DNA from: Spirochaetia bacterium
GTDB lineage: Bacteria > Spirochaetota > Spirochaetia > SZUA-6 > Bin103
Direction of reading: 5' to 3'
DNA length: 64,000 nucleotides
Assembly (NCBI GenBank): GCA_965203905.1
Contig: CBDBDQ010000005.1
Span: forward strand, 2,560,001-2,624,000
Position 1 is the first letter of the stretch. The number at the start of each line of letters is the position of its first letter. The position numbers and the translations under genes were made by a program. Of this stretch, positions 61,054 to 62,978 are shown one piece after another. The notes under the pieces were generated by a model. It made no database searches and was not told the DNA's origin. It was given only the letters and a program-made list of their open reading frames with translations.

Positions 61054-61401
61054 CTACCTGATGTAGTAGCCGGACACCCGCCAGGCGTCGCGGTCCCACA
61101 TGGCGGTGACGGTCTCAACCGCCGCCTGCTTGTGGGCGTAGGCTGCGGCAAAAGCGAGCACCCAGTAGCGGCCGTCGGGAGCGCCGGGAAGGGTGTCGTG
61201 ATGCTCGGCGGCAGTCAGGGAGCGAGAGTCCAGTTCACCCATCGGACCGAGCGCGGCTCGGAGGGCCTGCGCAAGTTGATCTTCCGTCACGGCGCCGCGC
61301 ATCAGCTCGGCCGCGCTCGACCAACAAGCCGGGTAGTCGCCGGCATCGAGCAGCGCGAGCCACTCGCGTGCGGCTCCCAGCGCCTCGTCTCGCTCAGTCA
61401 T
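61054..61401 (-). CDS. DUF4019 domain protein
   Basis: WLALLDAGDY..W, LPGAPDGRY, ETVT and WRVSGYYIR motifs. Confidence 0.88.
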   Translation of the reverse strand: MTERDEALGAAREWLALLDAGDYPACWSSAAELMRGAVTEDQLAQALRAALGPMGELDSRSLTAAEHHDTLPGAPDGRYWVLAFAAAYAHKQAAVETVTAMWDRDAWRVSGYYIR

Positions 61402-61637
61402 TCGAGCCCCGGGGTCGGGCGCGCGCAGGTCATCCTCATCCCACAGCAGTGTACTCGATAACCCCGCTGTATCACGCAAGCAATGCCACGCGAGGACCCA
61501 GCGCAGATGCCGACGAAAATCTCGACTCTGGCGGTGGCCGCGGCGACCCGCGACGCATATATTGATCGTTCGTTCCAGACTGAGGGCTCCGCACGGGGCA
61601 ATCACGGACGGCCAACGCAACAGCAAGGAGCAGCCCG

Positions 61638-62174
61638 ATGCCGACTGAACAGAACAGGCTTTACCTCTACGAGGCACTCGAACTGCGTGCAGAGTACGAT
61701 GCGCGCATCAAGACCTTGCGCGACTGCCTGCCGGAGACGCGCAGGAACCGGGACCGGCTCGGCATGTACCGCAACGAGGAGCTGCAACTTCGCGCGGCCG
61801 ACGACTTCGACGTGGCCGCGGTTCAGGAGTCGTTGCGGGCGCTGGAGCACAAGCGGCGCAAGCTCAACAACGCCATCCAGCGCGCCAACTACGCGCATAC
61901 CGTGAACGCCACCGGTGAGTTGCTCGACCTGAGCGAAGCTCTGGAGGTGCGCAAGGGTATGTCCGACCGCATCGGTGAGCTGCACACCCAGAGCGTGCAA
62001 TCCGCCTACGTGCGCGTGATCTACAAGGAAGGCCGCGACATCGTGGAGCCCAACGACGCCACCTTCGCCGCCAGCATGGCGCAACTCGAGTCGGTACGGC
62101 GGGCGTTCCGTGACCTCAACCGCGCGTTGCGCGCGGCCAGCTTCACGGTCGTGGTCGACTTCACGGACGAGTAG
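61638..62174 (+). CDS. DIP1984/DUF6847 (septicolysin-like) coiled-coil protein
   Basis: AAGGAG RBS; twice-repeated L.EAL..R motif (LYEALELR, LSEALEVR); KLNNAIQRAN and LNRALRAASFT helices. Family recognised by eye. Confidence 0.72.
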   Translation: MPTEQNRLYLYEALELRAEYDARIKTLRDCLPETRRNRDRLGMYRNEELQLRAADDFDVAAVQESLRALEHKRRKLNNAIQRANYAHTVNATGELLDLSEALEVRKGMSDRIGELHTQSVQSAYVRVIYKEGRDIVEPNDATFAASMAQLESVRRAFRDLNRALRAASFTVVVDFTDE

Positions 62175-62180
62175 GACGCA

Positions 62181-62483
62181 GGGCCACTTGGTGGCGCCGG
62201 AGACCATGAAGACCGATGCAGCGGGTTCGCCTGCTGGACATGGTTTTCGGAGTAGCGGGAAGCCAGAAAAATCGAGCAGGAGACGGGGGAGTAGGTGCGA
62301 GTCTCCCGGCGACGGGAGCGTAGCCCAGTAGATTGGCGACTGCGACAGCGATGAACATAGGTTTGAAACGCCCTAGTTTCCGGTAAAGCCCGGCAGCCGG
62401 GCAGCACCTCAGCGTCACAGCGAGCACAGCCCGAAAGCGAAACAGCATCATGACTCCGAGTCTCCTGCTCTTTCTTCCTCGCG
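62181..62483 (+). ncRNA. Candidate structured ncRNA with an 8-nt periodic AGC array
   Basis: 12-bp stem 62197-62208/62239-62250 (two G-U pairs) enclosing a UUCG hairpin 62219-62236; perfect 11-bp long-range helix 62274-62284/62460-62470; GNRA hairpin 62303-62318; eight AGC units in 62382-62446. Confidence 0.65.
62382..62446 (+). repeat. Eight degenerate 8-nt units, N4-(C/A)-AGC
   Basis: ggtaaagc ccggcagc cgggcagc acctcagc gtcacagc gagcacagc ccgaaagc gaaacagc; AGC spacing 8,8,8,8,9,8,8. Confidence 0.8.
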
Positions 62484-62495
62484 CCGCGAACGGTC

Positions 62496-62978
62496 TCAAC
62501 ACGGAAGGCCGCGCGGGCTCCAGCCTTCGATCAGGGCGGTCACTTCTTCGATCGTGCGATAGCAGGCGGCACGGAACTCCGGAGTGAGGCCGAGTGCGGT
62601 CACCGTGTGCTCGAATTCGTCCTCGTCGAGGACGATCGGTCGTTCGCCGGTCCGACGGGCCACGTCCAGTTCGTAGTCGGTATAGTGCAACTCGCCGTCG
62701 ACAACTTGCGCCGGGCTGGCGATGTGGACGTAGATCTCCGAGAGGGCGCCGGCGTCGTCGTAGAGCTCCAGCAGGTTGTAGGGCCGATCGAACCAGTAGC
62801 AGGCCCGGATGTCGGCCTGTGAGGCCCAGCCGCCCTTGGGCCCGCCAACGGGGTTGCCACGCCGGGAGAACGTATGCACGCCGCGGCTGTCCACCGTTTC
62901 GACCGCGCTCGTCCACCATCGCCGACGGGTGCCATCCAGGTTGAACACGACCACGTTGACTGCATCGCCCGCTCGCAT
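62496..62978 (-). CDS. DUF402 domain protein
   Basis: YWFDRPYN, YVHIASP, YTDYELDV and VLDEDEF motifs. Confidence 0.85.
   Translation of the reverse strand: MRAGDAVNVVVFNLDGTRRRWWTSAVETVDSRGVHTFSRRGNPVGGPKGGWASQADIRACYWFDRPYNLLELYDDAGALSEIYVHIASPAQVVDGELHYTDYELDVARRTGERPIVLDEDEFEHTVTALGLTPEFRAACYRTIEEVTALIEGWSPRGLPC

Follow-up and report, generated by a model that had tools for sequence, protein, structure and literature searches.

In Bacillus, TRAP forms an 11-subunit beta-sheet ring, and the trp leader RNA presents GAG or UAG triplets 2–3 nucleotides (nt) apart in a 5′ leader that works by attenuation. The Csr sponge RNAs CsrB and RsmZ carry irregularly spaced GGA motifs in hairpin loops, and the sponge genes do not lie beside csrA; the antitoxin RNAs of type III toxin-antitoxin systems such as ToxIN consist of tandem repeats of about 36 nt, are encoded upstream of an endoribonuclease toxin and are cut by that toxin; and the genes of IscB and TnpB carry at their 3′ ends the omega RNAs that these proteins use. 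We describe here a structured RNA and an adjacent protein-coding gene that recall each of these systems in some respect but appear to belong to none of them. The pair lies in a stretch of 64,000 nt (hereafter the window) from a Spirochaetia bacterium, positions 2,560,001 to 2,624,000 of the forward strand of contig CBDBDQ010000005.1 (assembly GCA_965203905.1); in the coordinates of the window, which are used throughout, a gene for a protein of 178 amino acids (aa) at 61638–62174 is followed on the same strand by the RNA at 62274–62470. We consider it likely, with a probability of about 0.6, that the RNA and the upstream protein are dedicated partners in an RNA-protein particle, several copies of the protein being carried on a track of eight slots.

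The likeness to TRAP and the trp leader RNA is a single-stranded row of identical trinucleotides at a fixed short spacing, each subunit of TRAP reading one triplet; here, in contrast, the period is 8 nt (or 7), the RNA is closed, pseudoknotted and placed 3′ of its own gene, and the protein is helical and unrelated. CsrB and RsmZ, the partners of CsrA and RsmA, are likewise non-coding RNAs with many short motifs able to hold several copies of a protein, but they lack a conserved head domain, and none of these families is found here by Rfam. ToxIN shares the arrangement of adjacent protein and RNA genes as a two-part module, with RNA repeats that bind the protein; the present RNA is instead one complex downstream fold with motifs of 3–4 nt set 7–8 nt apart, and a repeat finder reports no tandem direct repeat units, the hallmark of type III antitoxins, in this region of the window. 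Omega RNA modules resemble the locus in having a structured RNA of 150–250 nt at or after the 3′ end of a protein gene, but here there is no nuclease domain, transposon end or guide segment, the protein is of 178 aa, and there is a single copy per genome. A closing inverted repeat, as considered in a comparison with retrons, is present, but there is no reverse transcriptase gene next to the RNA; its neighbors by Pfam scan of the window are DUF4019, DUF402, adenosine deaminase and AAA/DUF4143 genes. As analogies, TRAP, the CsrB-type sponges, the type III toxin-antitoxin systems and omega RNA all seem to differ from this pair in sequence, fold and defining features, and no described RNA is known to enclose, within a closed fold, eight short motifs in strict register.

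A search of 61400–62700 against Rfam 15 at E values up to 10 returned chance matches to miRNA and CRISPR-repeat families only, all far under gathering scores; ten homologous loci gave no match at the gathering threshold, and the best-scoring member gave none at E up to 10. A first-pass annotation of this DNA had not recognized the RNA as a known class, which these searches bear out; as judged by sequence comparison, the RNA family is new and lies in no Rfam 15 family. A full-text literature search, with subscription journals and supplementary files outside its reach, found no paper on the RNA or on the function of the protein.

Structure and conservation of the RNA

The gene and the parts of the RNA are as follows.

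61638–62174, + strand: open reading frame of 178 aa, encoding a probably all-helical basic protein; its own compact family, marginal kin of Pfam DUF6847
62274–62470, + strand: conserved structured RNA, whole; core 62278–62465; covariance-model match of 140.2 bits, the sole one in the genome
62274–62284, + strand: P1, 5′ strand, pairing with 62460–62470; closing clamp, 11 bp in this lineage
62288–62292, + strand: P2, 5′ strand GGAGU, pairing with ACUCC at 62453–62457; 5 bp
62293–62301, + strand: junction J2/3, purine-rich, consensus AAGUGCGA; nearly invariant in the 72-sequence alignment
62303–62318, + strand: P3 hairpin CUCCCG-GCGA-CGGGAG, with the GNRA tetraloop GCGA at 62309–62312
62321–62328, + strand: junction J3/4, UAGCCCAG, nearly invariant; CAG at 62326–62328 pairs with CUG at 62340–62342 in the P4 loop
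62333–62352, + strand: P4 hairpin with a conserved CUG in its loop; weakened in the window copy
62359–62380, + strand: H-type pseudoknot, S1 62359–62361/62372–62374 and S2 62365–62369/62376–62380
62387–62452, + strand: tail made up of eight slots of 8 nt with AGC at the start of every slot, and one extra AGC at 62423
62453–62457 and 62460–62470, + strand: 3′ strands of P2 and P1, with a U-rich run after them

Covariation was counted on a six-helix structure in an alignment of 72 sequences, the window and 71 other loci. In this first set 88.8% of the pair cells are standard pairs, against 37.1–47.3% when the 3′ partners are slid by 1–3 columns; 26 of 32 pairs change on both sides, and none of 500 shuffles reaches the observed values. 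When the sequences are aligned by model and the loop-junction pairing is added, a set that leans towards the covariance model built from the same alignment, 92.2% of cells are paired (36.6–45.3% slid) and both partners vary in 27 of 35 pairs. A second set, drawn from metagenomes and selected solely by a 21-nt motif at the 5′ end of the RNA, gives 91.7% paired against 27.6–45.3% slid, with both-sided change at 19 of 29 pairs. Compensatory changes are present in all of the helices, and the check proposed in the first-pass annotation, that homologues should have a covarying downstream structure, is thus positive for the second of its two domains. The pairings it listed (62197–62208 with 62239–62250 around a UUCG hairpin, 62274–62284 with 62460–62470, GGAGU with ACUCC, and CUCCCG-GCGA-CGGGAG) are all present in the sequence and in the minimum free energy (MFE) fold.

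The individual helices are conserved to different degrees. P1, which extends up to 13 bp elsewhere and whose outer pairs vary freely, has 94% of its cells paired and both-sided change in six of eight counted pairs; P2 is 100% paired, with three of its five pairs changing on both sides; and P3 shows both-sided change in all seven pairs while remaining 96–99% paired. All five pairs of P4 change on both sides, with 79–82% of cells paired after model alignment, and in the pseudoknot between J3/4 and the P4 loop 98.7% of cells are paired, the middle pair being exchanged from A-U to G-C in five sequences. In the H-type pseudoknot, both-sided change is seen in four of four counted pairs of S2; S1 is the weakest helix of the RNA (one of three pairs changing on both sides, 84–85% paired), and we note that its window coordinates were placed by eye and that the counted columns map to 62360–62362/62370–62372, which are nonstandard pairs in this copy. 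A CCGG block separates the H-type pseudoknot from the tail. By eye, the GCCC of J3/4 could alternatively form a long-range pairing with the G-run that precedes the pseudoknot. A conserved hairpin within the tail was sought and rejected, the folds there being lineage-specific with none common to lineages. The U-rich tract 3′ of P1 is found in 26 of 72 family members and is absent in 46; a simple scan of 61350–62650 finds no intrinsic terminator, and likewise no promoter sites.

Folding energies agree on a structured region without being specific to one strand. The whole spacer between the gene and the next one downstream has an MFE of −132.6 kcal/mol (z −2.48, with one of 100 shuffles as good), and its reverse strand has z −2.24; the RNA domain alone has z −3.37 on the + strand (one of 200 shuffles as good) and −2.35 on the − strand. 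The strand of the RNA is the + strand, because G-U cells exceed A-C cells by 161 to 57 when read on it, the tetraloop is a GNRA loop on it, and the orientation relative to the gene is constant in all 80 matches.

The RNA element is also non-coding, since no frame anchored at its conserved ends is open for at least 55 codons in more than 12 of the 72 elements, and since the element lengths fall into all three classes modulo 3. The statement in the first-pass annotation that the spacer has no credible open reading frame is thus correct for the conserved element, no anchored frame being conserved across the 72 homologues; some stop-free frame does run across the full length in 27 of the 72. A small open reading frame on the − strand, with a start near 62451 and AGGAG before it, was considered and rejected, because a stop ends it after 15 codons in the sister genus and, within the genus, it is disrupted by an insertion of 1 nt.

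The periodic tail and a second motif class

The tail is a row of eight slots of 8 nt whose register keeps a constant position with respect to P2. Bounded by the CCGG block on one side and by the 3′ strand of P2 on the other, the 72 tails are 58–65 nt long (median 63.5) and composed of 36% A, 30% C, 20% G and 14% U. AGC is their most enriched trinucleotide, with 395 occurrences against 94 expected from shuffles, and the distances between successive AGCs peak at 8 (126 cases), 9 (29) and 15–17 (110). Counting backward from P2, AGC is present 8 nt away in 64 of the 72 tails, at 16 nt in 48, at 24 in 32 and at 33 in 53; farther away it is found at 41 nt in 11, at 48–49 in 49 (at exactly 48 in 39), at 56–57 in 16, and at 63–65 in 57. 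The tail in the window fills all eight slots, with AGC at 62387, 62395, 62403, 62411, 62419, 62428, 62436 and 62444 in addition to the extra copy at 62423, so that the periodic AGC array described in the first-pass annotation is real and has an 8-nt register. The same offsets recur in the second set, in which 54 other metagenome tails contain 295 AGCs against 62 expected.

A second class of the RNA is represented by six metagenome loci that score 58–65 bits with the model. In five of them the protein is only 38–42% identical to its main-class counterpart; in the sixth the gene has been lost. These RNAs retain P1, P2, the junctions and the GNRA hairpin, but their tails contain AGC only 0–2 times and instead have UUAC four to seven times (0.4–0.6 expected), at spacings of 7, 14 or 21 nt, with a few at 8 or 15. 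When the two protein classes are aligned, 38 positions are invariant in both, and 21, among them positions 23, 74, 118, 129, 161 and 165, are fixed within each class but differ between them. Of the indirect signs that the array is read by the protein, the strongest is this change of motif and period along with the protein subfamily.

A further gene-RNA pair of the second type lies in a low-G+C genome (L257, G135:C3, 1018–1750, − strand); its RNA is 32% G+C and scores 32.7 bits, and its gene is divergent, so that the family evidently tolerates extreme composition. The tail of this RNA has eight UUA trinucleotides at spacings of 4–8 nt, but the composition predicts 5.4, and we give them no weight.

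The upstream gene, its linkage to the RNA, and the surrounding locus

Linkage was examined from both directions. Starting from the protein, a profile of 21 members was searched against one genome per species, yielding 80 loci, in nearly all of which a conserved block starts 10–60 nt past the stop codon; a pattern check of 75 of these loci found both ends of the RNA in 71, with three cut by contig ends and one missing the 5′ block. A covariance-model match lies just past the stop and on the strand of the gene in 78 of the 80 loci (72 full-length at 115 bits or more, one full-length at 81 bits, three cut by contig ends and two degenerate), and in the two loci without a match the genes are truncated. 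Starting from the RNA, 61 of 64 metagenome loci that contain the 21-nt motif and at least 620 nt of upstream sequence have the end of the gene 5–40 nt upstream (median 12), and among shorter loci the 3′ part of the gene is present in 13 of 16. The two samples share overlapping public data and are thus not fully independent. In the genome of the window, gene and RNA each occur exactly once. Of 92 genomes in the order, ten have the RNA at full length and nine of the same ten have the protein, and in one genome (G005) both gene and RNA are truncated. The proposal in the first-pass annotation that the gene and the RNA form a system therefore holds as far as linkage is concerned, with the two on the same strand and 5–40 nt apart; that they act together is probable from the same comparisons.

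Several loci depart from the usual arrangement. In the tenth genome of the order with a full-length RNA, the intact RNA of 165.9 bits (L116, G056:C105, 2660–2888) is preceded by a ribosome-binding site and by what is left of the deleted gene, about eight codons, and is flanked by ribbon-helix-helix antitoxin-like, nucleotidyltransferase-like and IS66-type transposase genes. In a genome without the protein there is a weak partial match of 34.3 bits (L118, G027:C12, 1661–1807, − strand) covering model positions 20–180, in which the GNRA hairpin and the CCGG-AAAGC block are recognizable. Two tail-only variants (L084, 4511–4608; L117 in G021, 2179–2326) have lost the head but retain the array of AGCs along with the 3′ sides of P2 and P1; the former is directly behind an apparently intact gene, and G021 has no gene. 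One 17-kb contig (L081/L082) carries two identical gene-RNA pairs and a third, gene-less RNA (L081, 365–531) with an internal deletion of P3 and P4.

The protein itself has 546 homologues in a large protein collection, and a search of 1.84 billion representatives puts its family at 203 clusters at 50% identity. The best 150 of these clusters range in length from 39 aa (fragments) to 244 aa, with full-length members of about 170–185 aa, and include no fusions. The nearest relatives of the window protein are 90% identical and come from metagenome-assembled genomes labeled Spirochaetia. Invariant Arg, Lys, Asn and Gln residues are abundant in the alignment of 21 members; a HEPN-like R-x4-H motif was considered and rejected, the Arg not being conserved in the family alignment.

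The DIP1984/septicolysin-like label given in the first-pass annotation is at the margin of detection. The translated open reading frame scores 26.1 bits against Pfam DUF6847 (PF20935), for which the cut-off is 27, with only profile positions 62–138 of 141 matched, and a six-frame search of the genome gives 27.1 bits; NCBIfam DIP1984_fam (NF038048) scores 30.2 bits, below its cut-off of 70, PDB chain 3kdq is matched at an E value of only 0.26, and a profile-profile comparison of the 178-aa family with canonical DUF6847 members by hhalign has a probability of 10.2%. A precomputed PF20935 tag is present on most of the homologues. What aligns, weakly, is the C-terminal half of DUF6847/DIP1984 ("septicolysin-like" in some annotations; PDB 3kdq) with helical residues of about 6–86 of the 178-aa protein, and canonical DUF6847 genes differ in that the conserved RNA is missing, at E up to 1, from 19 of their loci in 17 genomes belonging to the same phylum. 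From its sequence, the relation to DUF6847/DIP1984 is marginal. No known endoribonuclease toxin family (ToxN, AbiEii and others) was found for the protein with Pfam, NCBIfam or PADLOC; the PADLOC defense models have zero matches at the locus, and PHROGs returned a single weak family of unknown function.

By record title the 80 loci comprise 22 from Latescibacterota, 22 from Desulfobacterota-type "delta" lineages, ten from Spirochaetota, eight from the PVC group, four from Gemmatimonadota and 14 others, the last including Acidobacteriota, Nitrospinota, Rokubacteria, Binatia, Hydrogenedentota and two archaeal-binned contigs. The gene-RNA loci carry the labels of over ten phyla. The pairs on the two archaeal contigs (L050 and L101, binned as Bathyarchaeota and Methanophagaceae) are nearly identical to Desulfobacterales ones and could reflect mis-binning or recent transfer. 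The protein tree has 19 changes of phylum label, against a minimum of 15 and a shuffled mean of 40, to which mis-binned contigs may add noise, and Latescibacterota and Spirochaetota are each split in it. As far as the sequences tell, this distribution is best fitted by long vertical maintenance with losses and a few transfers. The RNA motif has no match in a viral contig collection, and a family member used as tblastn query has none in plasmid and phage collections.

In a clade of the PVC group (L085–L088, L090, L096, L098 and L099) the gene is preceded by an XRE-type helix-turn-helix regulator at all eight loci, and the RNA is followed at seven of the eight by an unknown protein of about 375 aa, for which (as the 376-aa example) no Pfam, NCBIfam or PADLOC family was found. 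A palindromic, operator-like site lies upstream of the gene in this clade, and its tails seem to use A-Y-A-C at the upstream slots.

Public sequencing runs containing this stretch are mostly labeled as sponge or coral metagenomes. A tiny coral-reef metatranscriptome has contigs that cover only 62284–62460, at 99% identity; among other RNA libraries, one covers the end of the gene, and another, derived from a relative, covers the gene as well as the 3′ portion of the RNA. Uncovered parts of these libraries are uninformative and carry-over of DNA is possible, so we take the coverage of 62284–62460 as a weak hint that the RNA is made and stable.

The remaining features of the locus lie between the gene and the RNA and on the far side of the RNA.

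62173–62258, strand unassigned: dispersed palindromic repeat of about 85 nt, resembling repetitive extragenic palindromic (REP) sequences or miniature inverted-repeat transposable elements (MITEs); 21 further copies in the genome
62175–62495: spacer of 321 nt from the stop of the 178-aa gene to the convergent DUF402 gene
62496–62978, − strand: DUF402 gene, convergent with the 178-aa gene

The segment at 62173–62258 is a REP/MITE-like repeat that has landed between the gene and the RNA and lies outside the conserved RNA. Its 21 further copies in the same genome (E<1e-5) are 76–91% identical, nine of them on the + strand and 12 on the − strand, and copies are found in other genomes of the genus too; an alignment of nine copies spans about 85 nt and places the window copy at 62173–62258, while a search with the spacer shows that everything beyond its first 80 nt or so is unique in the genome. 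In eight relatives from two genera the repeat is absent at the orthologous site, the gene being 82–88% identical, and the counterpart of 62274–62476 lies about 20 nt past its end at 75–92% identity, the same range that applies to the RNA domain 62274–62470 itself. The first hairpin of the first-pass annotation (62197–62208/62239–62250) is excluded from the conserved RNA by these dispersed copies and by its absence in the relatives, and the argument that its G-U pairs fix the + strand fails because the repeat occurs in both orientations. The structured RNA of about 300 nt proposed there is consequently real as an RNA of about 195 nt at 62274–62470, its size having been overestimated by inclusion of the repeat, and we note as a caution for annotation that the first hairpin is a mobile repeat that stands between gene and RNA by chance.

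REP and MITE repeats resemble 62173–62258 in being short, imperfectly palindromic, intergenic, present in both orientations and variable in presence among close relatives, but it matched no named family. Other copies are for example in G000:C5 at 4146178, 3238394, 3785048, 3948197 and 26322, and at 16 more places. The ends of the repeat are short inverted repeats around TAG; the stop codon TAG of the gene coincides with the first bases of the repeat, and identical letters are at the far end, as in a target duplication.

Comparison of neighbors across the 80 loci reveals no third gene in common. The DUF402 gene is present after the RNA in the window, G001 and G007 (relatives include L010 and L013) and absent in G006 and G004, where adenosine deaminase is directly next; since it varies within the genus, the downstream neighbor of the RNA is not fixed.

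A proposed protein-binding track and the competing explanations

We favor the interpretation that the RNA is a dedicated partner of the protein encoded upstream of it. Under this interpretation the gene and the RNA would be read as one unit from the promoter of the gene, and the RNA would close on itself by P1 and P2. A compact head of about 105 nt, consisting of the GNRA hairpin, the loop-to-junction pseudoknot and the H-type pseudoknot, may then serve as a nucleation or capping site, and the track of about 63 nt, with its eight 8-nt slots each opened by AGC, would bind several copies of the protein, up to eight, presumably one per slot. This could yield a defined particle of RNA and protein, or else an RNA by which the protein is restrained. 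A more specific and more tentative proposal, which we put forward as possible but on balance doubtful, is that the track is a molecular ruler that sets the number and the spacing of the subunits, so that assembly would be templated by the RNA with a code of AGC every 8 nt or UUAC every 7 nt.

Several observations weigh against a dedicated protein-RNA partnership. The RNA is found without the gene in G056, L197, L178 and L124, as a second copy in L081 and as the tail-only remnant in G021; these RNAs may act alone, or may have arisen through recent deletions of the gene. The slots are incompletely filled, the median being five AGCs per tail, the eight PVC-clade loci are AGC-poor, and the bases of the AGCs have a mean unpaired probability of just 0.41 in thermodynamic folding. 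The motif swap is known from six loci only, two of them nearly identical, and co-inheritance alone also causes a protein and an RNA to diverge together. Finally, no contig bridges gene and RNA in the four RNA libraries.

The RNA could instead be an antitoxin, with the array soaking up a harmful protein that becomes active only when the RNA is degraded or outnumbered, and the module, self-contained, in two parts and patchily distributed over 10 of 92 genomes in the order, has that appearance. The decay is asymmetric: four loci keep the RNA without the gene, whereas in none of about 140 loci examined does an intact gene stand without the tail array; L084, which has lost the head, has kept the tail. 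Some copies also adjoin antitoxin-like, nucleotidyltransferase, HepT-like and IS66 genes, and the PVC clade has its XRE-type regulator upstream. Against this, no PADLOC defense model is matched, the phage, plasmid and viral collections searched contain no copy, the RNA is a single complex fold unlike the tandem repeats of the known type III systems, and no enzyme motif is apparent, the R-x4-H spacing of the window copy not being conserved; moreover, the protein tree tracks the phylum labels (19 changes, minimum 15, shuffled 40), which speaks for long vertical maintenance over a roving selfish module. We therefore regard an antitoxin role as unlikely. Still lower in our estimation is a cis-acting 3′ untranslated element, whether a stabilizer, a terminator or a processing signal, that has no specific protein partner. 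Such an element would account for the constant position 5–40 nt past the stop on the same strand, for the U-rich run after P1 in 26 of 72 members, and for the failure of the window scan to find a promoter-like site between gene and RNA; but 46 of the 72 lack the U-rich run, the RNA remains intact where the gene has been deleted, an 85-nt repeat between the two is tolerated in the window, and two pseudoknots, invariant junctions and a tail of 58–65 nt with a registered motif would be superfluous for a stabilizer or a terminator.

The gene could alternatively be a neighbor that is merely co-regulated or shares a promoter with a stand-alone RNA, which would serve some other factor, either a host protein or an RNA to which it pairs. 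The existence of RNA-only loci is as expected for such an RNA, and a factor whose gene lies elsewhere could read the short motifs just as well; yet the linkage of 61 of 64 and 78 of 80 loci spans over ten phylum labels, no further neighbor is shared, and motif and period shift with the subfamily of the neighboring protein, so that we give this explanation as little credence as the cis-acting one. That there is no RNA at all, and that the element is a decayed coding sequence, the end of a mobile element or a palindrome acting at the DNA level, we consider extremely improbable. The stop-free frames in 27 of 72 elements and the reverse strand, which at z −2.35 also beats shuffles, could be read in this way, but anchored frames are open in at most 12 of 72 with lengths in all modulo-3 classes, the periods are 8 and 7 nt and not 3, compensatory changes are found in all helices with G-U exceeding A-C by 161 to 57, and the element occurs once per genome.

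To our knowledge, large and structured RNAs whose function is unknown are rare in bacteria, and each has opened new biology. The family described here is widespread, occurs mostly in uncultured lineages, has very strong covariation support and comes with a candidate partner protein at hand; the natural variant, in which motif and period are changed alongside the protein, makes for a testable hypothesis with a built-in specificity swap, and an orphan protein family gains its first functional handle. If the protein does read the spaced motifs, a programmable RNA-binding scaffold may be possible. If, further, the track acts as a ruler, the protein would be a new type of modular single-strand RNA-binding protein with a simple, evolvable code, and the pair would constitute a new bacterial ribonucleoprotein particle, long kept in sediment-, sponge- and coral-associated lineages.

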